Positions 5,087 to 59,570 of a stretch of 64,000 bases of DNA are shown one piece after another. Source of the stretch: Crassostrea angulata (taxonomy: Eukaryota); contig NC_069114.1 in the NCBI RefSeq assembly GCF_025612915.1, forward strand, positions 49,578,639 through 49,642,638. Reading direction: 5' to 3'. Both the position numbers and the translations under genes were made by a program. Numbering within the stretch: the stretch's first letter is position 1; every line of letters begins with the position of its first letter. The notes under the pieces were generated by a model. That model ran no database searches and was not told the DNA's origin. It worked only from the letters and a program-made list of their open reading frames with translations.

Positions 5087-5476
<390 letters not shown>

Positions 5477-8535: not shown

Positions 8536-8857
8536 AGCGCCAGGTAGACATTGAGATAGAGTTGTAGTCAGACATAACTTCCTGTATCTCCATTGAGATG
8601 AGAGTTGTAGTCAGACATAACTTCCTGTATCTCACATTGAGATGAGAGTTGTAGTCAGACATAACTTCCTGTATCTCACATTGAGATGAGAGTTGTAGTC
8701 AGACATAACTTCCTGTATCTCACATTGAGGAGAGTTGTAGTCAGACATAACTTCCTGTATCTCACATTGAGATGAGAGTTGTAGTCAGACATAACTTCCT
8801 GTATCTCACATTGAGGAGAGTTGTAGTCAGACATAACTTCCTGTATCTCACCAACAG
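8536..8857 (+). repeat. 44/41-bp tandem array (~7 units, attgagatgagagttgtagtcagacataacttcctgtatctcac) ending at the acceptor of the exon starting 8858
   Basis: period 44 (attga at 8592 and 8636); last unit supplies the polypyrimidine tract ctgtatctcaccaacag. Confidence 0.85.
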
Positions 8858-12716: not shown

Positions 12717-14072
12717 ATATGATATTGGACTAGCTTAATAATCTGTGCTAGTTTCAATGTATTATGTCTATTTATATTGTTCATGCATTGTTTTCTGTGT
12801 TACCAATAAAGTTGGTAGTTTTGTGTTTAGACTTATATATGTTTCATTGGTCCAACGGTCCTTATTTCATTAGGTGAATTCGATCGAGTTCTGACACCCC
12901 CATCCCCTTGAAAAGGATTAAATGGAAATTCACATATCATTATAAACATATGTGCATTTAATTTCAAGTATTCCAATAGATCGTCAAACTTTACAAAATG
13001 GTTGTAGGTTCATGATGACCCTGTATGAAACGGAATATATGATCACGTGATTAGTGTCCTATATCGTCAGTCTGGTCACTGGTGGCGGGTCTTTACCTCA
13101 TTCCAACCCCCAACCTCCCTGCCGTTTGACAAAACCGGTATGTTTGATCATACATGCATGTATGTATGTGAGCGATCGGCCAGTTATTGCTATATCTTGG
13201 GTTATCCACCCGAGTTGTATTCCTTGGACTAGTCACAATATGTTGTTGTTATTCCGGGCCGATATATCGTCTTTAAGATGCTATCAACTTCCGTAATAAA
13301 CGTACGATTGCCTGGGCCTCTTCAATTTACTTGAGTAAAACGCGATGCAATTTCTCCATACTGGCAACCTTTTTCCGCCATACCAATACAATGCCATATA
13401 AAAAGGAATTCCTTTATTTTAAATATAAATTTCAATTGCGCTCATAACAAATTAACCAAGAAGCGCTAAGAAAACTGTGAACTATAGCCAGCAGAGCTAT
13501 TACCGCAGTCATAGCAATGCCAACTGGAAAACACTGCTTATATTGCTGAATAAGTAACACTATATTCTTTATTTATTGATGATACAATTGATGCATGAGT
13601 TGAATACAGGTATAACAGACATGTACTAGTATGTTGCTGCCATCAAAAGACGTCATCTGAAAAAGAAAGAGATAAAAATTTCAACTATCAATGTAATTTT
13701 TCACTAAAGCATAATACCGATTTCATCTGGACGCATCCAGTGACAAGAGATCACAAGGAGAGATGGGGAGCTACAAGCGAGAGAGTGCCAGGGACAGAGA
13801 TCAGGAGTGAAGTAGCTGCAATATTGTAGCCCTCTCCGATTTCTTTTTATCTGACGTTTTCTGAAGATGACTACGTTATTGCAGCTAGGAGAGAAGGGAA
13901 GAGGCACGTGACAGCTTCGTGACTTACATATGCGTGTTTCGGACACTACTGAGTTTCATTCTCACACCAGTGTGCTTGGTTGTGTATGAAAATTGAAAAC
14001 AGGTTTAAATCACCTTAACAATCAATAGCAAGGTTCTAAACAATTGTAAAAGTTAAATAAATGAAATCTTTA

Positions 14073-18519: not shown

Positions 18520-19666
18520 ACCTGTCAGGTGGGTTGAAGTTTTACATAGGAATATATAGAGTAAATTTTTATAAAAATCTTCTTCTCAGAAACTAATCAG
18601 CCAGGAAAGCTGCAACTTGTGCCGAAGCATCTTCAGGTAGTGTAGATTCCAAGTTGTGAAAATCATGATCCCTGGGGGTAGGGTGGGGCACAATGGAGGG
18701 TCAAAGTTTTACATAGGAATATATAGAGTAAATATTTAAAATTCTTCATATCAGAAACTAATCAGCCAGGAAAGCTTATTTTTTTTTAAATCTTCTCAAA
18801 AACTAATCAGTCAGGAAAGCTGAAGCTTGTGTGGAAGCATCCTCAGGTAGTGTAGATTCCAAGTTGTGAAAATCATGACCTTGGGGGTCAGGTTGGGGCC
18901 ACAATGGGGGTCGAAGTTTTACATAGGAATATATAGAGTAAATATTTAAAATTCTTCATATCAGAAACTAATCAGCCAGGAAAGCTTATTTTTTTTAAAT
19001 CTTCTCAAAAACTAATCAGTCAGGAAAGCTGAAGCTTGTGTGGAAGCATCCTCAGGTAGTGTAGATTCCAAGTTGTGAAAATCATGACCTTGGGGGTCAG
19101 GTTGGGGCCACAATGGGGGTCGAGGTTTTACATAGGAATATATAGAGTTAATATTTAAAATTCTTCATATCAGAAACTAATCAGCCAGGAAAGCTGAAAC
19201 TTGTGTGGAAGTATCCTCAGGTAGTGTAGATTCAAAGTTGTGAAAATCATGATCCCTGTGGGTAGGATGGGGCCACATTAGTGGGGTGTTTAAGTTTTAC
19301 ATAGGAATATATAGAGTAAATCTTTAAAAATCTTCTTCTCAGAAACTAATCAGCCAGATGATTCTTTATAATTGTTAAGACTTTGGCTCCAGGACAATTT
19401 TTCGGCTTCACAAGAAGGTTCGGAGTTTAATGTAGCTTTATATCCCATATATAAACAATTGTTAAGGATCTTTTTGAGAACTGAAATACTCAACATGTGA
19501 TATGACTATAAAATCATCCTGTTAGAAAAGGGACTAATGATGATAAACATAAGAATATCCAGGGGGGAAAATGGATTTTATTTATACAGGATCAACATGT
19601 ATTATTGTACATTGTCCAGATTGTTTGTATTACGACTCCATTAAGCTGATTTTATTATACCTATTG

Positions 19667-22277: not shown

Positions 22278-24095
22278 AATTGGTCTTCGTCCGTCGTCGT
22301 GCGTCTGTGCGTCGTGCGTTAACAATTTTACATTTTTAACTTCTTCTTGAAAACTACCAGGCCAATCGTTACCATTTTTTATGTGAAGCATCTCTATGGT
22401 ACGAAGAATCTAAATTGTGAAATTCATGGCTCTACCACCCTTGGAGTGCCACGGGCGGGGCCAAATGCCAAAAAAGCCAAATTTTCAAAAATCTTCTTCT
22501 CTACTCACACGCATGTGAGGAAAAAACCGGTTGCATGGTTATGATGTCCATGAAGCCCTCTAACAAAATTGTGAAATTTATGGCCCCAGGGTCAGGGGTT
22601 CTGGCTTTAGGATGGGGCCAATATGGCCATATAGTAAAAATGTATTAAATCTTAGAAAATCTTCTTTTTTACTACCATATATATTTTTTAAAAACTAAAT
22701 GCATGATAATGATGTCCATGAAGCCCTCTACCTAAATTGTGAAATTTATGACCCCTGGGTCAGGGGTTCAGGATCTAGGGTGGAGCAAATATGGCCAAAG
22801 AGTAAAAATGTATTAAATCTTAGAAAATCTTCTTCTCTACTCCCATACATGTATATATTTGTTAAAAACTAAATGCATGATTATGATGTCTATGAGGCCC
22901 TCTATCATAATTGTGAAATTCATGACCCCTGGGTCAGGGGTTCAGGCTCTGGGGTGGGGCCAATGTGGCCAAATAGTAAAAATGTATTAAATCTTAGAAA
23001 ATCTTCTTCTCTACTCCCATATATATTTGTTAAAAACTAAATGCATGGTTATGATGTCCATGAGACCCTCTACCAAAATTGTAAAATACATGACCCCTAT
23101 GTTAGGTGTTCAGGCTCTAGGGTGGGGCCAATATGGCCATATAGTAAAACTGTTTTAAATCTTAAAAATCTTCTTCTCTACTCCCACACATGTGAGCAAA
23201 AAACTGAATACATGGTTATGATGTCCATGAGGGCCTCTACTAAAATTGTAAAATACATGACCCCTTTGTTAGGTGTTCAGGCTCTAGGGTGGGGCCAGTA
23301 TGGCCATATAGTAAAACTGTTTTAAATCTTTAAAAATCTTTTTCTCTACTCCCATCCATGTGAGCAAAAAACTGAATACATGGTTATGATGTCCATGAGG
23401 GCCTCTACTAAAATTATGAAATTCATGACCCCTTTGTTAGGTGTTCAGGCTCTAGGGTGGGGCCAATATGGCCATATAGTAAAACTGTTTTAAATCTTTA
23501 AAAATCTTCTTTTCTACTCCCACACATGTGGGCAAAAAACTGAATACATGGTTATGATATCAACAATCTCCTTTACCTAAATTGTGAAATTCATGGCCCC
23601 TTGGTCAGGGGTTCAGGACATGAAAGGGGGGGGGGGCGCAATATGGCAATATAGTGTTAATGCATATAATGTTTAACAATTTTCTTCTCTATTCTCACAC
23701 ACCTGTATTAAAAAAATGACTAATAATTATGTTTACTAGGAAGACCTCTACTGAAATTTAATTTTCATGTCCCCTCAAGGATGGGTTTTGACTCTAGGAC
23801 AGGGCCAAAATGGATGTATAGATGTTTATGCATATAACGTTAAAAATTATATTCTTTACTCCCACACACCTGAAAGGAAAACTGAATTCATGATTTTGTA
23901 GACCAGATCTTAGTTTTTCAACAAAATTATAGGTTTCACAGTTCTTTTTGAAATGTGGTCGTCATTACAAATTTATAATTTTTCTACTCCAGTATGAAAC
24001 CTAATTAATTAGATGCATATATGAGGCTCCGTGACAAGTTTGTGTATGGGATGCATGCTACTCAGGTGACCGTTAAGGCCAGTTGGCCTCTTGTT
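22240..24095 (+). mobile_element. Helentron/HINE-like composite repeat copy 2: 27-bp hairpin aggtcacctgagtcactcaggtgacct + ~7 x 175-bp satellite (22440-23600) + tail ending ggccagttggcctcttgtt
   Basis: head homologous to reverse complement of 31560-31790; tail terminus homologous to copy 1 terminus. Confidence 0.5.
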
Positions 24096-27030: not shown

Positions 27031-27147
27031 TCACCGTCTGAATTGTCCCGTGGGTCGCATGGATTCAACACGACCCTGGAGGTCATCGATCCGGACGTCC
27101 TTCAGGTGAATCAGGTGTTCCAGCCGATGAATTTTTGCTTGTAAAAT
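27031..27147 (-). CDS. SPEF1: SPEF1-like A terminal exon (ILQAKIHRLEHLIHLKDVRIDDLQGRVESMRPTGQFRR*)
   Basis: ctgtaccag acceptor; coiled-coil matches human SPEF1 VLQMKVRRLEHLLQLKNVRIEDL; stop TGA at 27033-27031. Confidence 0.8.
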   Translation of the reverse strand: MLQAKIHRLEHLIHLKDVRIDDLQGRVESMRPTGQFRR

Positions 27148-27639
27148 CTGTACCAGATAAAACAAATGAATAATTAAATGAATGCTTTCATTTGATATAG
27201 ATATCAAATACCTGCCTATTTTACTTATATACTTCTATTTCTTCCCTTTTTTGGTCATCAATTTCTACCATTATAAAGCATTTTTTTTTTACCGTATTGA
27301 TATGAAATCCTTCAAGTTGGCATCTCTTATTCATTTTTCCCATCTTTTTGAATAATTTTTAAAATTATTAAGCCCATTTTCCTAATTCTGAATCCCCTAC
27401 CAATATATAATTTAGCTCCTTTTTCTAATTTTATAGACCCCAATCAATGCCTTTATTTAGCTCCTTTCCCTGATTTTATAGACCCTTGAAGACCTGTACT
27501 AATACCTTTACTGAGCCCTCCCTACACATTATAGACGCCTTCCAATACCTTTACTTAGCCCTTTCTCTGATTTGTAGACTCCTATCAATGCCTTTACTAA
27601 GCCCATTCCTCTATCTAACACACCTTTACCAATACCTCA

Positions 27640-28811
27640 AGTACCACTCCCTTTTATGAGTCCTTCCCTCTACCTTATACCCATGCCATTTCCTTTCAAA
27701 AGCCCCTTCATCTACCTTATACCCCTACCACTCCCCTTCATGAGCCTCTCCCTCTACCTTATACCCCTTCCACTCCCATTCATGAGCCTCTCCCTCTACC
27801 TTATACCCCTACCACTCCCCTTCATGAGCCTCTCCCTCTAAATTATACCCCTTCCACTCCTCTTCATGAGCCCCTCCCTCTACCTTATACCCCTACCACT
27901 CCCCTTCATGAGCCTCTCCCTCTACCTTATACCCCTACCACTCCCCTTCATGAGCCTCTCCCTCTACCTTATACCCCTACCACTCCCCTTCATGAGCCTC
28001 TCCCTCTAAATTATACCCCTTCCACTCCCCTTCATGAGCCCCTCCCTCTACCTTATACCCCTACAACTCCCCTTCATGAGCCTCTCTCTCTAAATTATAC
28101 CCTTACAACTCCCCTTCATGAGCCCCTCCCTCTAACTTATACCCTTACCACTTCCTTCATGAACCACTCCCTCTACCGTTTACCTCTACCACTTACCTTT
28201 ATGAGCATTAACCCCTCCTTTTAACTGGTAAGTCCTACCACACCCATTCAAGAGCCCCACCCTCTACCTTATACCCCTACCATTCCCATAAGGAGCCCTT
28301 CCCCCTACCTTATACCCCTACCACACCCCTTCACGAGCCCCTCCCCCCTACCTTATATCCCTACCACTCCCATTCATGAGCCCCTCCCTCTACCTTATAA
28401 CCCTACCATTCCCATAAGGAGCCCTTCCCCCTACCTTATACCCCTACCACACCCCTTCACGAGCCCCTTCCCCCTACCTTATACCCCTACCACACCCTTT
28501 CACGAGCCCCTCCCCCCTACCTTATACCCCTACCACACCCCTTCATGAGCCCCTCCCCCCACCTTATACCCCTACCACCCCATTCATGAGCCCTACCCCC
28601 ACCTTATACCCCTACCACTCCCCTTCATGAGCCCTACCCCCACCTTATACCCCTACCACCCCCATTCATGAGCCCTACCCCCACCTTATACCCCTACCAC
28701 ACCCTTTCATGAGCCCCTCCCCCCCACCTTATACCCCTACCACCCCCATTCATGAGCCCCTCCCCCTACCTTATACCCCTACCACACCCCTTCAGGAGCC
28801 CCTCCCCCTAC
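27640..28811. repeat. 42-bp minisatellite, ~28 copies (ccttatacccctaccactccccttcatgagcc(c)ctccctcta), in last intron of SPEF1-like A, abutting exon 5 donor
   Basis: period 42 read directly; minus-strand unit contains ATAAGgtagggggagg resembling exon 5 donor ATAAAG|gtagggggagg. Confidence 0.85.
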
Positions 28812-28938
28812 CTTTATGGTCTCATCCTTAGCAAGACACTCTTGGACTTTCTCCTCGAACACAAGGCGGGGTACATGGTCGGCCTCGGAGACATTGCGTA
28901 AAATCTTCTGCCTGGGTTGGTTTGTGTAGTACTCGTGC
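28812..28938 (-). CDS. SPEF1: SPEF1-like A exon 5 (HEYYTNQPRQKILRNVSEADHVPRLVFEEKVQECLAKDETIK)
   Basis: cag acceptor, AAG|gtaggggg donor; paralogous to B exon 5 (..GDHVSRLLFEEKVQESLSKDETIK). Confidence 0.75.
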
Positions 28939-29634: not shown

Positions 29635-31748
29635 GAACAATAGGTATGATAAAGTCAGCTTAATGGAGTCATAATACAAACAATCAGGATAATGTACAAT
29701 AATACATGTAGATCCTGTATAAATAAAATCCATTTTTCCCCCTTGGAACTCGGATAGCCCTGATTGCTGCCAATATTTACAAGAGCAGACTTTAATGACC
29801 GCTTCTGCACATATATAGGGACTCAAAATTACGCAGGCAGGGATGACCGCACACCTACACAACTCAACAGGTACCAATGTTAACGCAAGTAGGGATAAAC
29901 AACTCAACAGGTACCAACGTTAACACAAGTAGGGATAACCGCACACTTGCGCCAACAGCTCAACCTAACGCAAGCAGGCAGTGCCGCACACTTGCACTAG
30001 AAAGGCCAGAACACCAGCAGGGAGGACCATACACAAGTGCTCCGCCCCAACCACCACAAGCAGGTATGACCGCACACTTGTATTAATGCGATACAGGGCA
30101 GGAATGACCGCACACTCTGTATCATAGGTTAGAAAACACGAAAATTAGATAGAGCAGGGGTGTCCACCCACTCAATCTATCCATACCTGTTCAAGCTTAA
30201 CCCCAAACAATCGATAATCTTAATGAAATAGACACTATCCCTATATATGTGCCGGCCTAAAATAATTCATAGTATCTAAAAATTGGAAATCAAAAATAAA
30301 CAAACTTATCCGGCCTTACCCAAAACTACTTATGCAGAACAACTTATATACATTGAATATTCATTATTGTATAAAAATAATCATCACAATAATTGGTTAA
30401 CAGTGGATGCATTAATTAAAATAATCAAGAATCAATAAATCAAGGGCAAAAACTCAATACAGTAATACAAAAAGAGTCTAATGAAAAAATAGCTGCCTGT
30501 TTCAATTTTATAGTCATATCACATGTTGAGTATTGCAGTTCTCAAAAAGATCCTTTACAATTGTTTATATATGGGATATTTAGCTGCATCAAACTCTGAA
30601 CCTTCTTGTGAGGCCAAAGAATTGTCCTGGAGCCAAAGTCTTAACAATTATAAAGAATCATCTTGCTGATTAGTTTCTGAGAAGAAGATTTTTAAAGATT
30701 TACTCTATATATTTCTATGAAAAATTTTAACACCCCCCCCCCCATGTGGCCTCACCCTACCCCAAGGGATCATGATTTTCACAACTTTGAATCTACACTA
30801 CCTGAGGATGCTTCCACACAAGTTTCAGCTTTCCTGGCTGTTTAGTTTCTGAGAAGAAGATTTTTAAAGATTTACGCTATATATTCCTATGTAAAACTTC
30901 GACCCCCAATTGTGGCCCCACCCTACCCCCGGGGGTCATGAATTTCACAACTTTGAATCTACACTACCTGAGGATGCTTCCACACAAGTTTCAGCTTTCC
31001 TGGCTGTTTAGTTTCTGAGAAGAAGATTTTTAAAGATTTACACTATAAATTCCTATGTAAAACTTCGACCCCCCATTGTGGCCCTACCCTACCCCCGGGG
31101 GTCATGAATTTCACAACTTTGAATCTACACTACCTGAGGATGCTTCCACACAAGTTTCAGCTTTCCTGGCTGTTTGGTTTCTGAGAAGAAGATTTTTAAA
31201 GATTTACTCTATATATTCCAATGTAAAACTTCGACCCCCCCATTGTGGCTCCACCCTACCCCTGGGGGTCATGAATTTCACAACTTTGAATCTACACTAC
31301 CTGAGGATGCTTCCACACAAGTTTCAGCTTTCCTGGCTGTTTAGTTTCTGAGGAGAAGATTTTTAAAGATTTACGCTATATATTCCTATGTAAAACTTCG
31401 ACCCCCCATTGTGGCCCTACCCTACCCCCGGGGGTCATGAATTTCACAACTTTGAATCTACACTACCTGAGGATGCTTCCACACAAGTTTCAGCATTCCT
31501 GGCTTTCTGGTTCTTGAGAAGAAAATTTTTGAAAATATCTCGAAATTTTTCATTAATTTCTAATTATCTCCCCTTGAAAACGGGTGTGGCCCTTAATTTT
31601 CACAACTTTGAATCCCCTTTGCCTAAGGATGATTTGTGCCAAGTTTGGTTGAAATTGGCCTTGTAGTTCTTGAGAAGATGTTGAAAATGTGAAAAGTTTA
31701 CGGACAGACGGACGGACAGACGGACGACAGACAAAATGTGATCAGAAT

Positions 31749-39148: not shown

Positions 39149-39284
39149 ATGGATAATTACAAGTCAAATGGAACAAGTATGGCTGAATTCGACGACGCGG
39201 AATTGGAAGAATTATACAACTGGGTGGACAGTATACCACTCAGCAGGCCAAAGAAAAACATAGCTAGAGATTTTTCTGATGGAG
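39149..39284 (+). CDS. SPEF1: SPEF1-like paralog B exon 1 (MDNYKSNGTSMAEFDDAELEELYNWVDSIPLSRPKKNIARDFSDG)
   Basis: ATG at 39149; G|gtaaga donor; matches SPEF1 CH-domain N-terminus. Confidence 0.8.
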
Positions 39285-39948
39285 GTAAGAAACAAAGAAC
39301 TATTTTGAAATGAATTTGATTCATTTGTGTTTAATGACCTGAAACTGTAACCGTACGGGGTTTTTTTTTTCCCCCTTCAACTTAGGTGTAAGGAGTGGTG
39401 GTCACTGTTTATTACAGATATATTGTTTATTTATTTCAATCATTATTGTATTAGCCATTCATTATTATAGATTTTGAAGAAAAGTTTGCATAGTGTTAGG
39501 GAAAAATATTAAAGGATCGAAAGTCTTCCCAATCAAAATCAGTATACATGTAATAATTAAGTAAACAAAGAAATGATTCACTCAATAACTTCATTTGCTT
39601 TATACATGTACTGATTTACAAGGAGACTGATTAAACATGAATCTACATGTCTTGTTTAATTATTTGTAATTATATACAGCTTTAAATAATCACCCAAATT
39701 GGTTTCTAAAAAAATGATTTTCATCATTTGCATGAAGCATGCATTATAGAATTATCACTACAGGAAACAATTTCCATAATTGATCATCCATTTATGCACA
39801 CTTTTGCATATTTAACACTGAAGAATTTAGATTAAAAGCCATTTACTGCTTCTTCTGTGTTTTATGCATGCAATGTGCAACATAAGCTTATAATCACTGC
39901 ATGCTGTTACTGTGTAAGAGACATGAACGGTTGATATTATTGCTGTAG

Positions 39949-40060
39949 TGTTGGTAGCTGAGATTGTCCAACATTTCAAACCACAGTTGATTCAAATGCA
40001 CAACTATACTCCAGCCAGTGGGCTAAGTATTAAGAAGGATAACTGGATGGTTCTCAACAG
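39949..40060 (+). CDS. SPEF1: SPEF1-like B exon 2a (VLVAEIVQHFKPQLIQMHNYTPASGLSIKKDNWMVLNR), 112 nt
   Basis: tgctgtag acceptor, AG|gtatcg donor. Confidence 0.75.
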
Positions 40061-40851
40061 GTATCGGCCACCTCTCTCCACCGTTTGATCGCTTCATGTG
40101 TTGTGTCTTAGATCTGTAGCATATTCATTACCGCATTCATCATCCGGATTTGTAGAAAGTGGGCAGTCAAAAAGTATATACACCTTAAGCATATTTTTTG
40201 CATCAAATAGCATTTCATTTGAGGTATCAATTATTTTTGTTTTTTTTGCATCAGTGTATCATATACATGTGTTAGATTATTTTGGGATTGTGAGACAAAT
40301 TGTTGAAATTTATGAAAAAAACCAATTACTGTAGATATGTATATGCACTATAAATTTTTAATTCAAACTAAGCAAGATAACCTCAGTGGGAACTTTGTCA
40401 AAATGTCAAATCTTTTTGTGTGTGATTTTGGGTTTTTATTTTTTTAATAAAAAATGACTTTTATACCATGCCAAAATTATTTAATACCTGAATAGTTCAT
40501 TCATGCAAACCCCTGCCTCAAGTTTCACCCTAGGATGATGGATGTGCCTGATGTTGCAGTGTTAAGTTCAGAGTGTGTACTGTGTTGTGCTAGCAATGCT
40601 CTTATTTTGCACAGAGATGTTCAAAGACTATAATCATGCATCAATTTCAGATGTTTCATACTAAAATAAAATTCAGTTTTGATCACTGCACTGTCATTCA
40701 CGTTCAGTTTGACATTTTATTGAAGTACCTTTGCATCAAATAAGATTCCTTTTTGCAGACTTTTGAACATCCCTGTGCCAACTCTCTTCTCTATTATCTG
40801 ATCTTAGTTCTTCTTCAGCTCTGGAATTAGTTTGTTGTTGGTTGTTTTCAG

Positions 40852-40963
40852 TCCTGGTAGCAGAGATCATACACTATAAGTTCCCTACACTGGTGGAACT
40901 CCACAACTACTCCCCAGCCAGTGCAACAGATAAAAAGTTGCTGAACTGGGCAGTTCTCAACAG
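40852..40963 (+). CDS. SPEF1: SPEF1-like B exon 2b (VLVAEIIHYKFPTLVELHNYSPASATDKKLLNWAVLNR), tandem duplicate, presumably mutually exclusive with 2a
   Basis: gttttcag acceptor, AG|gtaaag donor; identical length/phase to 2a. Confidence 0.7.
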
Positions 40964-42183
40964 GTAAAGCCCCAATTTGTATCAGACAGGTCAAACAACA
41001 TTGATTTCCTAACGTAATTTCTTTTTTTTCTTTATTTGTTTTTTGGCTTTACAAATCAAACTTATTATTTTAAACTTATGCCATATGTGTTTAGCATCAT
41101 CATTTAATGGTATTTGTAGTTGATAATTGCATGTGCTAGACTATATTTAGGTAAAGGTGAATTGTAAAGATGATTGAATGCCTATAATCTTACATAAATA
41201 GCTGTTCGACATACTGTACTATATATAACTGTGTAGAAGTTTGGAAGCAGGTTAGTCAAAATAAACTTTTAATTCTTCTTAAGGTCAGAATGATATTAGT
41301 ATATAGAGTACATGTATTAAGCCTAGTTAATTACTGTCACAAAAGTAAAGAAAAGAAAATGAATAACGATAGTTTTATAATTCCTTACCTTAAACAGCTG
41401 TTAATAAATGTAAACTTTCAAAATTTCAAAATTATAAATTATAAACGAGTATGAACTTATAAATAGATATAAACATGTATATTCTTTAAAGAGTCATTTT
41501 CAGCAGCTGAAGGGACATCTTCTTGATGTCTACTTTTTCTGATAACATGTCACTTGTCATTCTGCTCTTTGATTTATTTCTCTGACTCATAACCCAGAAC
41601 TTATAAACGGACACGTCACGCTTGATTCTGCAACATTTTCAATTTTCCTAATTCACATTTTTATGACTGTCCAGCTTAATTAAGTATGAAGTGTAGACTA
41701 TGATGACTATATATAATGATAATCCATGTAATAACTATTTTTCTGAAATTAAATAAAAAGACTAAAATTTACAATATGTTCATTCATTAACTTACCTGAG
41801 CATTTACTGGTAACTCTTTGATAACTATTCTATCATCTTTTATGATAATGCATATAAAGGTATAACTCTTTACGTGTTATTTATCGTTTAGGTCAGTTAA
41901 AGTCTGTTTATTTACTCAGTCAATATAATAAGTATCTGTCAAATGTAAACTTCACCTGTAGGCTTATTAATTAAAATTAATAAATTGTTTTATAAATTAT
42001 CTTTATTGATAATATCACATCAAAGAAAAGTAAAATGCAGGGTCAAAAAGTTGGGTTAAATTTAATTAACAATGTGCTGAATACTGTATAAATGTATTTA
42101 TAATTTAAAGTAGAATGGAATCATATCATATGATATACAATTTCATATATCTTAACAATCTTTTATAATTCAATCTGGATCAG

Positions 42184-42401
42184 AAAAGTGCTGAGCAAGC
42201 TGAATTTTAGCCTCTCTGATGAGGTGATTCGTGAGGTGATCGCCGCCAAGCCCGGCGTGATCGAGAAGGTTCTTCTGATGCTGCGTCTGAAGCTAGAGCG
42301 GGCTGAATGGGAGCTGACCAAACAACCCCAGCACGTCAAACACAAAGGGAAAGGGGGGCGCCGCACCGAGAGTGACAAACCCGAGGCCGATCAGTACATG
42401 G
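42184..42401 (+). CDS. SPEF1: SPEF1-like B exon 3 (KVLSKLNFSLSDEVIREVIAAKPGVIEKVLLMLRLKLERAEWELTKQPQHVKHKGKGGRRTESDKPEADQYM)
   Basis: tggatcag acceptor, G|gtaggt donor. Confidence 0.8.
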
Positions 42402-42732
42402 GTAGGTATATAAAGGGGGAGGGGGGGGTTACCCTAGGGTAAGTTAAGTGGTGGGAGAATACAGATACAGGATAGAAATAAATCACAGAGAAAGATTTTA
42501 ATCAAATTGTTATACAGAATTTGATCATTAATGAAATGAAGGTTATGACATTTGAATGGCATTTACCGGTATCTATTTATAAATAATAAGATGCTCTATG
42601 TTTAATTTTGTTGAATTGCTCAGGAATAATGTTTGACTTTGGAAAGTAGAGCTGTTTTAAACAATTTGAGCATAAAAGAGCAAGTATAAAAGAGCAGAGT
42701 ACAACTGTTTCTAAACCTGTCATTCCTTGCAG

Positions 42733-42790
42733 CAACACCTGGCCGAGGGCATGCTGGAAAGATTAAGTCTCACAGTCCCACCAGAGGAGG
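42733..42790 (+). CDS. SPEF1: SPEF1-like B exon 4 (ATPGRGHAGKIKSHSPTRG)
   Basis: ccttgcag acceptor, GG|gtaagg donor; phase consistent. Confidence 0.6.
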
Positions 42791-44991
42791 GTAAGGTCAT
42801 CATGTCTATCTCCCCACCTATACTACCCTGACAAACCCTGACACCTGCAGTTATAGTACCTGTATTCATTAGTACCTGTGTCCATTACTGTCCGCAAGTT
42901 GTGTCGCATCGTTAAAGTTTTGTGCATGTACAAATATCTACTTATTATCATCATACAGTTTTCTTGGATTTTAAAAACTGATGAGACTGAAGAATCAAGG
43001 CAGTTTTTATTATTTAATTGATTTATATTAGGTTTAAATTTAGTGAGATGAAATATGAATTTTTCTAATTTATTAGATTTCAGGGGATGTCCCATTATTA
43101 CCCTGGGCTATATGAACCATCCAAGTTTTCTCAATGGTCTCTTGCAAAATATTAGTAAAAAGTGCATGAGTCTGCTTATAATTAACGTTATTAAAAATAC
43201 TGTATACAGGGTTATTGTTGCCCATGTTATTTTCACCCTAGCTTCTACACATGCAAACAGATTCACCCCATCTTGAAATCGCCATGCAGATGCATTTGTA
43301 TTAAAAGAGATATGAGAAATTAGAATTCGCCCACTGATTATGAGGGAGAAAGGGGTGAAAATAAAATGGGGGCAAATATTTCCCTGTATACAGTATTCAT
43401 CAGGAGCTATGCTAATTAGAACATGTTTTGAGTAATTAACAAACCAATAAAACATAAAAAATGAGGATATTTTGTTACAGAAACATTATTACAATAAAAT
43501 ACAGATGTACAATAAAATGACACCTAAATATACACGTAATATGATACTGCATTTATTCTTTGAATTTTGTAAGACCTTTACCATATTAATCAAGTTATGC
43601 TTATTTTAGTATTCTATTTTCTGTTTTTTCTTCAATAATTAGTTAAACTATTTAGATCAAAATCCAGGAAGCAGAATCAACAATTCCCCTCAACTTGTGA
43701 AAATAAATGCCCAGAGTTTAATGTGTGTAAAATATAATTTTAGATTTTAAAACAATAATCTTTTTTTTGTACCATAGTTGATTTTAATTTAGTAGTACAA
43801 TGTACATAATACCAGGTAAATGGAATTTAGATCATACTAACTAATTAAGTCTTGCCACCCCAATATTAGGGCTAGGTTAGAATCTATTCTAATTGCATTC
43901 CAATTGACAGTTTTAACTGCAGTCATATATTTAGATAAAGAGTTCAAAAATCTTATGAGTTTCAAGGAACAAATTGTGGCAGCGTTATATTCAAAAGATT
44001 TGGTGATTTTCAGGAACTCAATGCCAAATGCTGATTACAAAGAAGTAGTCACATTAGAATCATTGGCCAGGTATCAGACAGGGAGAGTCGCTAAGTCTTT
44101 AGTTCTCTTTAGTATCCTTTCAACTATGCATGTCTATATTCTTTCTACAATTTCCTTGAGTTTTCACTGAAAAAGGAGAGATGGAAATCCTCGGATTTAA
44201 TTCATTTTCTTTATTTACCTTTCTTTGCTTCATTTGGGAACAAGAGATGATATATCAGCCACACAATCTTCTTTTCTATACACTGGCTATTTCTAAATAT
44301 CTAACTGCAGAAACGTAGGTCCACAGGAAATCAGGGTTTCTGAATTCCCAGTGGAGCTACAGTTCTGTAGCTAGAAAATATTGTTATCCCTTTTTTTTTT
44401 CATTTATAATATTGATTTGATATCAGTTTTACAAAAGTGGTATATTGTAAGTGAAAATGAAATATGCTCTATGCTGCAGCACTATCTAACACTACAAACA
44501 TTTTAATTAAACTTGTATTGCACTGGGTGCAAGGATTCTGCAGTGTCATTCTGTGGATCAGGAGTTTTGTTTGGGGAACTTTAAAGTGATTTTTTTTACA
44601 AGGAAGAGGGAATCAAAAGTCTTACTTAATCAGCTATCTACATTTGTACAGATATTTATTGATTAACTGATTAATGAACTGCAAATTAATTAACTTCATT
44701 AATATGATTATTTGATGTATTTAGCAGCATGAGTAAAGTTGTATATTTTTACTGCATGCATGCTTATCATACATAATCATAGTTTATGTTTTTGTCAAAA
44801 AAACTTTTCAAAAGGAAAAATCTGATTTCTTGAATTTTTTTGAAATAGTATGGAATTAAATCCTCTAGAAATTTGGTGAACTTTTAATGTTTAACAGTTG
44901 TGAATGAATTGATAATTGTTGTACTGAGAATCTTAAAATTTACTTTTAAATTTGCTGCAAGTAAATTGATTACTGTCATTAATCAATACAG

Positions 44992-45121
44992 GCCAGATTA
45001 CTTCCCGGATCAATCCAGACATAAAGGTCCGGGCGCCAGTAAAATCGATGGGGACCACGTCTCCAGACTCTTGTTTGAGGAAAAAGTCCAGGAAAGTTTG
45101 TCCAAGGATGAGACGATAAAG
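44992..45121 (+). CDS. SPEF1: SPEF1-like B exon 5 (PDYFPDQSRHKGPGASKIDGDHVSRLLFEEKVQESLSKDETIK)
   Basis: aatacag acceptor, AAG|gtactg donor. Confidence 0.75.
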
Positions 45122-45352
45122 GTACTGAGTGATACATTGTTTACAAGAATCTGAATTGATTTTTATAAAGTGTGTGTTTTATGTTTCCTTAGAGTTGAAG
45201 CATCATTGTAATCTCATATTTCTTAAAACATCCCACATGCATTTATGAAGAGCTGATTTCAAATATCTCAGTTGAGAAACGTACTAGCTGTTTTGATTTT
45301 TTAGCAATGCACAAACTATTAAAGTTTCGTAAACTTTGATGTTTTATTTCAG

Positions 45353-45472
45353 ATCCTACAGGCCAAGATCAATCGCATGGAGCACTTGATTCATCTGAAA
45401 GATGTCCGGATTGATGATTTACAGAACAGAGTAGAAACCATGCGACCCACAGGAAACCTGGTCCGGCGATAA
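45353..45472 (+). CDS. SPEF1: SPEF1-like B terminal exon (ILQAKINRMEHLIHLKDVRIDDLQNRVETMRPTGNLVRR*)
   Basis: ttatttcag acceptor; stop TAA 45470-45472. Confidence 0.8.
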   Translation: MLQAKINRMEHLIHLKDVRIDDLQNRVETMRPTGNLVRR

Positions 45473-46538: not shown

Positions 46539-46934
46539 CAGTAAAACTCCTAAGTAAGTCCTAGGGACCAATAGATTTACTTCGATATATCCGTAATTCG
46601 TTATATCCGTATAATGAATTCATAATAATAACTATAGTGAATTCACTAAATACATGTTTTCTTTCACCAGACTATAATTTTTGCTGATTGAGGCTTAAAA
46701 TTAAAAAATCATATTAATTTGATACCTTTAACATAGGCGTCGGAAGCAAATTGAAAGTGGGGGGGCTAGACTAATACTCAGAAATATTGAGAAAAAAGTA
46801 ATTCCCAAAATCATGGAAATCCTAATCCGTGGGGGGGGGGGGGGGGGGGGGGGGGGGGAATGTATACCTATACTTCCAAAAAAAAATTACTTACCCAATT
46901 TTTTTTTCTCCAAAATCATAAAATTCCTAATCCG

Positions 46935-46965
<31 letters not shown>

Positions 46966-55306: not shown

Positions 55307-55730
55307 CACTGGCGTCGGAAGCAAATTGTAAGTGGGGGGGCTAGACTAATCCTCTGAAATATTGAGAAAATAGTAATTCCCAAAACCATGGAAATCCTAA
55401 TCCTGGGGGGGGGGGGGGGGGGGGGGGGGGAGTATACCTATACTTCCCGTAAAAAAAAAATTTACTTACCCAAATTTTTTTTCTCCAAAAATCATGAAAT
55501 TTCCTATTCGTGGGGGGGAGGGGGGGGGGGGGGGGGGGTAGAATGCTTGTGAATCCAACTTTTCAATCTTTCAAGGTAAATTTAGAAACAATAATCTTTC
55601 CTGCGAGAAAAAGTGGGGGGGGGGGGGGGGGGCTGAACACTCTATATGCTATGTTTCTTTCTAATGGTAAGGTATAAATTTGCAAAAAAAAGTGGGGGGT
55701 CTAAGCCCCCCCTAGCCCCCCCCCCCCCCG

Positions 55731-55829
<99 letters not shown>

Positions 55830-59099: not shown

Positions 59100-59570
59100 A
59101 TACTGTAGAATAGTAGATCAAAACAGACTGGGTGGAATCACACTGGTACATGTAATACCAACACAGTTATAGGACTAATCATATCTTATAGTACATGTAC
59201 TAACACAGTGTTGTAGGACTTAGCATACCTGGTAGTACTAACACAGTATTAGAAATAGGACTAATTATACTGATAGTACTAATGTACCAACCATAATAGA
59301 AGTAGTACTAACACTGTACATGTACTAGGACTGGTCATCATGGTAATACTAATACAGTTCTAAGACTGGTAGTACATGTACTAATATAGAACTAAGACTG
59401 GTCATACTGGTAGTACATTGTACTAATACAGTTCCGAGACTGATCATACTGGTCGTACTAATACAGTACAAGGACTGATTGTACTGGTAGTACTTTTAAA
59501 GTACTAGGACTGGTCATACTGGTAGAACTAATATAGTACCTGGACTAGTGCAGACTGGTGAAAGAGTGGA
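59100..59570. repeat. ~38-40-bp minisatellite (gtactaatacagt.c.a.gactggtcatactggta), ~11 units, in last intron of SPEF1-like C
   Basis: read directly. Confidence 0.7.

Follow-up and report, generated by a model that had tools for sequence, protein, structure and literature searches.

A minisatellite in a SPEF1-like gene of the oyster Crassostrea angulata that probably arose in place from a splice-donor junction

Introduction

How did the donor site of an intron come to be followed by a long series of copies of itself, and which of these sites is used when the transcript is spliced? We addressed this question in a stretch of 64,000 nucleotides of Crassostrea angulata (RefSeq assembly GCF_025612915.1, contig NC_069114.1, positions 49,578,639 to 49,642,638 of the forward strand), hereafter the window, in which the intron between the two last coding exons of a SPEF1-like gene (gene A, minus strand) is largely occupied by tandem copies of a 42-bp unit. 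An initial annotation of this locus had described the repeat as seeded from the donor junction, and had suggested that its decoy 5' splice sites could affect splicing fidelity or U1 recruitment, or could be selected. According to the analyses presented here, it is probable, and we hold this with good confidence, that the array is a locus-specific, non-coding minisatellite that originated in place from the junction, whose decoy donors are silent while only the upstream donor is used.

Results

Anatomy of the array

The region 27642-28814 is a tandem array with a period of 42 bp, 27.8 copies, 85% matches and 2% indels (Tandem Repeats Finder, TRF; score 1384), arranged head to tail within the intron. 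The features of the region are as follows, in window coordinates, with a slash marking the exon/intron boundary in motifs:

28812..28938, minus strand: penultimate coding exon of SPEF1-like gene A, (R)HEYYTNQ...AKDETIK, followed by a phase-0 intron (sequence, tblastn, RNA contig L009)
28806..28814, minus strand: authentic 5' splice site AAG/GTAGGG, cleavage between 28812 and 28811, 7/9 match to MAG/GTRAGT (sequence)
27642..28814, minus strand: 42-bp minisatellite, 27.8 copies (TRF, unit alignment, profile hidden Markov model (HMM), composition)
28231..28811, minus strand: proximal block, about 14 units of 40-43 bp, very G-rich (GTAGGGGG or GTGGGGGG) (unit alignment)
28141..28230, minus strand: disrupted break between the blocks, holding the perfect donor AAG/GTAAGT (sequence, unit comparison)
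27642..28140, minus strand: distal block, about 12 units of exactly 42 bp, GTAGAGGGAGAGGCTC type, 93% mean identity (unit alignment)
27395..27641, minus strand: about six decayed units of 43-45 bp, homologous to and in phase with the 42-bp unit (TRF 27497-27608, period 43; alignment)
27148..27394, minus strand: non-repetitive 3' part of the intron, with pyrimidine tract and acceptor (...tttgttttatctggtacag) (sequence, alignment to the whole short intron of a related species)
27031..27147, minus strand: last coding exon, ILQAKIHRLEHL...TGQFRR, then stop (sequence, tblastn, RNA contig)

The exon ends with ...GAGACCATAAAG (...GCTAAGGATGAGACCATAAAG) at 28812 and the intron begins at 28811 with GTAGGGGGAGGGGCTC, i.e., GTAGGGGGAGGGGCTCCTGAAGGGGTGTGGTAGGGGTATAAG/GTAGGGGG..., while the consensus of the unit on the transcript strand is ATAAG/GTAGAGGGAGGGGCTCATGAAGGGGAGTGGTAGGGGT. 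The profile HMM, built from 25 aligned units, identified 27 units and no other match in the 64 kb, and its match to the first unit opens at model position 3 (coordinate 28814); the last three exon bases (AAG) are therefore part of the repeat. Thus, the first unit crosses the exon/intron boundary, with 3 exon nucleotides if aligned without gaps, or 5 of 6 with one gap (unit ATAAG, exon ATAAAG). Furthermore, a search with a 32-nt core of the unit and a tolerance of 3 mismatches gave 18 matches, 18/18 of them within the array, and 0 in 100 dinucleotide-preserving shuffles. The coordinates, period, copy number and starting point of the array in the initial annotation were confirmed by TRF, the HMM and the sequence, and the unit consensus matched the exon junction on realignment (ATAAG/GT vs ATAAAG/GT); the extent of the tract was underestimated, as the decayed in-phase units reach about 27395.

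The decoys of the proximal block include 6 identical to the true donor 9-mer and 5 that read AAG/GTGGGG. This block harbors a higher-order duplication of three units (126 bp, lag 3), in which the units 28482/28439 are 98% identical to 28356/28313; for the third pair, 28398/28272, no identity score was obtainable. In the distal block the best unit matches occur at lag 4 (168-bp higher-order period), several units are identical and 4 have no GT, and the last two units of the array are the most diverged (65-81% identity). The decayed units aligned with the 42-bp consensus in the same phase with a score of 12, against 1.8 +/- 2.3 in shuffles (0/500 shuffles reached 12), and none of them retains the donor-like GT at the corresponding position. 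The repeat accounts for about 1.42 kb of the 1,664-bp intron, and the non-repetitive remainder (27148-27394) is about as long as the complete intron of relatives.

On the transcript strand, the array is composed of 49% G and 5% C, pyrimidines come in runs of at most 6 nt, and no acceptor-like context is present; on such a purine-rich strand devoid of a pyrimidine tract, no cryptic exons can form. No open reading frame (ORF) longer than 61 aa was found within the array on either strand, a 63-aa minus-strand read-through ORF being mostly exon, and the short ORFs and the stops in all sense frames rule out the array as coding sequence.

Census of decoy donors

The authentic donor is reiterated along the intron as pseudo-sites, and 22 unit junctions of the 42-bp array keep AAG/GT. 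These decoys, and the units that lost the GT, are distributed as follows, all on the minus strand:

AAG/GTAGGG (AAGGTAGGG): 6, identical to the true 9-mer, at 28769, 28520, 28477, 28434, 28351 and 28308
AAG/GTGGGG (AAGGTGGGG): 5
AAG/GTAGAG (AAGGTAGAG): 9
AAG/GTAGAT (AAGGTAGAT): 1
AAG/GTAAGT (AAGGTAAGT): 1, perfect consensus, G at 28196, in the break region
GT lost: 4 units (AAGTTAGAG once, AATTTAGAG three times)

The previously given figure of about 28 decoys is consequently an overcount, and the statement that every unit carries a donor-like AAG/GTAGGG does not hold, as four units have no GT and only six copies of the true 9-mer exist. The perfect donor (9-mer 28199-28191) lies 615 nt downstream of the real one, and an indel of about 16 nt removes it from the haplotypes L001 (from short-read contigs) and L022 (from a long-read assembly, described below). 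A hairpin of ACTTACC (28232) with this donor (GGTAAGT, 28196) was discarded, its fold being no better than those of shuffles (z = -1.68). The GT columns were about as conserved as the rest of the unit, and gave no signal either way regarding selection against the decoy GTs.

Read in frame, the first unit of the window haplotype is GTA GGG GGA GGG GCT CCT GAA GGG GTG TGG TAG, so that any use of a decoy would meet a stop at codon 11. In the L001/L022 haplotype the first unit is open, and splicing at decoy 1 (+42 nt) would insert 14 residues (VGGGAHEREGYWYK) in frame.

Splicing of the intron

The RNA-derived contig L009 aligns with 28944-28812 and then directly with 27149-26615, which indicates that the authentic donor at 28812 is joined to the acceptor at 27147. 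The corresponding DETIK/ILQAK junction (...KDETIK/ILQAKIHRLEHL) is present in XP_011416273.1, in isoforms X1-X6 of Magallana (Crassostrea) gigas and X1-X5 of C. angulata, and also in all the full-length Logan-derived ORFs inspected, some of them found on up to 41 contigs. The contig, the RefSeq models and the ORFs all correspond to mRNA made from the most upstream, authentic donor, and no decoy use was detected among L009, the annotated isoforms and the inspected Logan-derived ORFs. Ten hypothetical decoy-spliced or intron-retaining products had no exact match in the protein collection, which is a low-power negative, and the exact look-up of the window's read-through ORF and of P0022 gave no match.

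Origin of the unit

In a related Crassostrea (93% aa identity, alignable intron) represented by 11 samples (L005, L010-L019), the intron measures 289-293 bp and begins ATAAAG/GTAGGGGGAGGGGCTC (in a longer form, ATAAAG/GTAGGGGGAGGGGCTCAAGGTTGGG...), the junction is single-copy, and TRF down to a score of 30 found no tandem repeat in the intron of any of the 11 samples. The first 16 nt of this intron are identical to the start of the repeat unit; since they are shared with a species that lacks the array, the unit is a copy of the ancestral junction, and not the reverse. In the global alignment the related species' junction falls on a decayed unit (ATAATGTGTAGGGAGGGCTC...), which shows that even the oldest copies carry junction sequence. 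The exon ends with GAGACGATAAAG/GTACTG in the neighboring paralog B, with ...ACAATCAGG/GTAATT in paralog C, and with GAGACGATCAAG/GTGAGT in a more distant oyster (L008, 79% aa identity), and the introns of these three are of about 175-215 bp or unrelated in sequence. The absence of an array from paralog B (exon end at 45122, intron of about 215 bp), noted initially, was verified by TRF and by sequence. DETIK/GT is common to gene A and paralog B, and DETIR is found in paralog C; judging from these sequences, the exon end is ancestral.

No copy of the unit was found by core search or HMM outside 27350-28900 in the window, nor in unrelated fetched loci. The single-copy junction in the relative and the confinement of the unit to this place in the window thus indicate that the array arose where it stands, from the junction. 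With the boundary-spanning first unit, these comparisons support the seeding proposed in the initial annotation, and we regard the junction origin as well supported by the sequences compared.

Two separate observations concern these same loci. Eight of the related Crassostrea samples (L010-L016, L018) have extra called ORFs about 150-1700 nt after the exon, downstream of the gene (minus-strand ones of 190-191 aa, plus-strand ones of 154-159 aa), which are absent in L005, L017 and L019 and suggest that an insertion is polymorphic here or that the 3' flank differs. The homologous intron of paralog C (59146-59546) contains about 400 bp of tandem repeats with periods of 35-44 bp, starting about 100 nt past the donor, that are unrelated in sequence to the unit of gene A and not G-rich.

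Allelic variation

The same gene was identified in the long-read chromosome assembly of M. gigas (GCA_963853765.1, OY970752.1:3370695-3386835; L022), with an intron of 2,556 bp that contains 49.8 copies of the 42-bp unit and 39 decoy AAG/GT sites, mostly GTGGGG. Its flanks are 94-97% identical to those of the window, and only 237 of the 1,658 31-mers of the window intron are present in it. The copy-number polymorphism that the initial annotation had proposed to look for was therefore found between two independent long-read assemblies (27.8 vs 49.8 copies), which are possibly of sister taxa: as the window exons agree fully (100%) with C. angulata wherever the RefSeq proteins of this species and of M. 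gigas differ, the two alleles may come from sister taxa rather than from one population. Two units of L022 (about 13165-13185 and 13300-13320) show a G-run grown to 17-19 G, which is a second level of instability within the minisatellite.

At least four families of unit composition were distinguished among haplotypes, and further unit variants were observed in Logan short-read contigs, two of which break inside the array. Four short-read assemblies (L001-L004) share an identical intron version of about 10 units, and L006 has about 4; reading these contigs as short alleles was judged unsafe, since de Bruijn contigs hold no repeated 31-mer. L001 shares 854 of 920 31-mers (93%) with the 50-unit L022 allele without its approximately 40 middle units, and probably reflects collapse of the graph path; at best it would be a deletion derivative. 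Short-read contigs can thus bridge and silently collapse the array, and were used here only as evidence of diversity in unit sequence.

The host gene and other features of the window

The joined exons match the Pfam family CH_2 (PF06294, "CH-like domain in sperm protein"; E = 3.7e-26), and the database relatives are annotated as sperm flagellar protein 1, with isoforms X1-X6, in M. gigas and C. angulata. Gene A spans 38625-27031 on the minus strand and includes several cassette exons, besides a CH-domain exon that exists in two alternative versions. The segment 27031-27147, initially described as the last exon, was verified by sequence and tblastn as the last coding exon; the exon called exon 5 was correctly located, and corresponds to the penultimate coding exon of a gene with more exons than assumed. 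Paralog B is arranged head to head with gene A (plus strand, 39149-45469), their start codons being about 520 bp apart, and paralog C, partial at the present level of analysis, lies at about 59730-56986 on the minus strand with two last-exon-like segments (57434-57357 and 57066-56986); the window therefore contains three SPEF1-like (CH_2 domain) paralogs. Genes A and B each carry two tandem, diverged versions of the CH-domain exon (VLVAEIVQYYFPKLIQMHNY... and VLVSEIMHHKFPHLVQKHNY...; 37460-37335 and 36074-35958 in gene A, 39933-40061 and 40848-40964 in gene B), which look like mutually exclusive exons, given that annotated isoforms and transcript ORFs carry one version or the other.

Other repeats of the window include satellite arrays of 165-168 bp (also with higher-order periods of 209 and 335 bp) at 22479-23758, 30665-31530 and 18581-19357, of a size similar to that of the known oyster satellites of about 166-170 bp. 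One of these arrays is located within an intron of gene A; the equivalent place in L022 (10243-11357) is taken by a different array of 166 bp. Well-conserved minisatellites were also found at 8548-8851 (44 bp x 7, 96% matches) and 5093-5359 (81 bp x 3.3, 98%), as well as long homopolymers (G28 at 46831-46858, G29 at 46936-46964, G26 at 55405-55430 and a run of 111 C at 55716-55826) that may be real or artefacts of sequencing or assembly.

Discussion

Comparison with known systems

Donor-spanning minisatellites are a class already described (PMC1557585; PMC3087553), to which the oyster array belongs and which removes the unusual character that the initial annotation gave it; our search for literature on oyster intronic minisatellites found nothing relevant. 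The closest case is the 37-bp variable number tandem repeat in intervening sequence 7 (IVS7) of human F7, whose first monomer comprises the last 4 bp of exon 7 and 33 bp of intron (Borensztajn et al., 2006; PMC1557585), as the oyster unit comprises 3-6 exon nt and about 37-39 intron nt. In both, a G-rich authentic donor (TGG/gtgggt in F7, AAG/gtaggg in the oyster) is followed by identical pseudo-donors in an array of polymorphic length, and only the most upstream site is represented in mRNA. The pseudo-sites of F7 are functional yet silent, because splicing there invariably selects the functional donor that lies farthest upstream, irrespective of repeat number and G triplets, and only a pseudo-site with 100% consensus could compete (PMC1557585). 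Unlike F7, which has 5-9 copies, the oyster array has 28-50, with more diverged units, two sub-blocks and decayed edge copies, and only 6/22 decoys identical to the true site; moreover, the host is a mollusc, and the scanning rule would apply to it by analogy. Further donor-spanning cases given in the same article are IFI6 (6-16), CBS, LMNB2 and PDGF, with pseudo-sites that are silent in LMNB2 and of which the first one or two are used in IFI6 and CBS (PMC1557585). The junction-spanning minisatellites of IFI6 (exon 2/intron 2, 12-bp unit) and CBS (IVS13) resemble the oyster array, their donors being reiterated about 15-26 times, and differ from it in that their first two pseudo-sites are constitutive and produce in-frame isoforms (PMC1557585), whereas none was found in the oyster, where the first unit of the window haplotype contains an in-frame stop.

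Among invertebrates, the "mirages" of amphioxus are minisatellite-like tandem duplications of exon-intron boundaries in Adh3 and globin genes, for which undisturbed splicing, copy-number differences between haplotypes, concerted evolution, divergent edge units and, in the case of Adh3, somatic instability have been described (PMC3087553). The oyster array shares with them the boundary-spanning unit, the retention of AG/GT signals in many, not all, copies, the undisturbed regular splicing, the haplotype-dependent copy number, and the concerted evolution within the array with diverged units at its edge; unlike the oyster unit, with its 3-6 exon nt, the units of mirages frequently comprise much exon sequence (150-160 bp in globins). 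The oyster array thus differs from the known cases mainly in scale (28-50 copies), in its sub-blocks and in the divergence of its units.

Another type of known repeat is represented by the G-rich, G-quadruplex (G4)-prone hypervariable minisatellites such as human CEB1. The oyster array is similar to these in its strong G/C strand asymmetry (49% G, 5% C), its 3-4 G-runs per unit and its hypervariability, and a G4-aware fold of the first three units with ViennaRNA gave -72.9 vs -28.1 kcal/mol, which is a prediction only. Unlike CEB1-type repeats, it holds no canonical motif G3+N1-7G3+N1-7G3+N1-7G3+ (loops of up to 7 nt); 15 motifs, all on the transcript strand, appear when loops of up to 9 nt are allowed, for which loops of 8-9 nt are needed, and both G4 formation and G4-driven instability are only hypothetical here.

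A minisatellite born at the donor

We infer the following course of events. A segment of about 42 bp, composed of the last 3-6 nt of the penultimate SPEF1 exon and the first 37-39 or so nt of the intron, would have been duplicated in tandem, and because this segment includes the junction, each intronic copy would carry a copy of the 5' splice site. Growth and turnover by slippage or unequal exchange, including multi-unit duplications, may then have taken an ancestral intron of about 290 bp to 1.66 kb in the window and 2.56 kb in the other assembly, while older copies decayed at the 3' edge. The spliceosome still works from the most upstream authentic donor, and the copies would be left as silent pseudo-sites; if human F7 IVS7 is a guide, the reason may be that the functional donor met first behind the exon prevails, through exon definition or 5'-to-3' scanning. 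The hypervariability of the array and its absence in congeners argue against constraint, and an array that is neutral and unstable, with only the most upstream donor in use, is the most likely interpretation.

Several points weigh against this interpretation. The unit and the related intron show no significant resemblance once the first 16 nt are passed (p about 0.07-0.17), so that proto-units in that intron were rejected as a candidate and the origin of the 3' two-thirds of the unit in the same junction is something we infer beyond the 16 shared nt. The exon part of the unit is only 3 nt without gaps (ATAAG vs ATAAAG), and the search for the unit covered only the window and the fetched loci. 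The evidence on splicing consists of a contig, models and ORFs, which leaves room for low-level decoy use or intron retention. Finally, the rule for splice-site choice derives from mammalian cells, not molluscs (PMC1557585).

Alternative explanations

Two alternatives would give the decoys or the array a role in splicing, and both appear unlikely. Splicing might take place at the decoys, rarely or under regulation, in the manner of human IFI6 and CBS, producing transcripts with premature termination codons or, on some haplotypes, an isoform with a 14-aa in-frame insertion; six decoys equal the true 9-mer, one at 28196 is a perfect AAG/GTAAGT, the first unit of L022/L001 is stop-free and its +42 nt decoy would add VGGGAHEREGYWYK in frame, and IFI6 and CBS employ their first two pseudo-sites (PMC1557585). 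Such a junction is found neither among isoforms nor in the RefSeq model or transcript ORFs, 0/10 hypothetical products occur in the protein collection (at low power), and the decoys of the window haplotype read into the TAG at codon 11, all of which makes this possibility a doubtful one. Slightly less plausible still is that the array is a selected splicing-regulatory element, whose decoys and G-runs recruit U1 small nuclear ribonucleoprotein or hnRNP (heterogeneous nuclear ribonucleoprotein) H/F-type factors and thereby strengthen a weak donor or protect the enlarged intron. The authentic AAG/GTAGGG matches only 7/9 consensus positions, each unit has about 3.3 runs of at least 3 G, and G-runs adjacent to the donor are ancestral, the intron of the related species starting with GTAGGGGGAGGGG; G triplets act as intronic enhancers in vertebrates (McCullough and Berget, as cited in PMC1557585). 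However, congeners and paralog B splice the same junction without an array, the assemblies are far apart in copy number (28 vs 50) and in unit sequence, the donor columns are no better conserved than others, and in F7 neither mutation of G triplets nor a change in repeat number altered site choice (PMC1557585). The effects on splicing fidelity and U1 recruitment and the selection envisaged initially accordingly find no support, considering that all the transcripts, models and ORFs inspected use the authentic donor and that the array is hypervariable and absent in congeners.

Other alternatives concern the nature of the repeat itself. That it is a piece of a dispersed satellite or of a transposon-borne minisatellite inserted beside the donor, its likeness to the junction being coincidental or due to later conversion, is very improbable. 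The window is rich in other tandem arrays, for instance the 166-168-bp satellites at 22479-23758 and 30665-31530, and bivalve satellites are often derived from transposons; against this, the window and all fetched loci are free of copies outside the intron, the unit begins with the 16 nt that start the intron in an array-free species, the oldest decayed units still carry ATAA..GTAGGGAGGGCTC, and neither terminal repeats nor target-site features were found. Least credible of all, to the point of being nearly negligible, is an assembly artefact through over-expansion or mis-joined reads. Short-read contigs of the locus do have far fewer units, which is however expected from a k=31 de Bruijn graph, L001 sharing 854/920 31-mers with the 50-unit allele; the array is longer still, at the same position, in an independent assembly from long reads, unit variants and higher-order repeats are structured, and two short-read contigs break within the array.

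Improbable to much the same degree as a selected regulatory element is the idea that array alleles are functionally non-equivalent, making the minisatellite a natural modifier of a cilia/sperm-flagellum gene in a broadcast spawner. If so, the pseudo-donor at +42 nt of L022/L001-type alleles would give rise to a SPEF1 isoform that has 14 extra residues immediately ahead of its C-terminal coiled coil, and very long, G4-prone alleles (at least 50 units) could lower expression via R-loops, G4 or intron retention.

Significance

No new mechanism is revealed by this locus. It extends the short list of minisatellites that originated at a splice donor by a very long mollusc example, whose 22-39 pseudo-donors include several that equal the real site. 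In practical terms, the array is a hypervariable marker that short-read assemblies collapse silently, and its annotation and genotyping need long reads. For the biology of these oysters, it shows a five- to nine-fold growth of an intron within a short evolutionary interval, and the alleles that contain a perfect donor 615 nt downstream or an in-frame first unit constitute a natural, non-vertebrate test of the most-upstream-donor rule.

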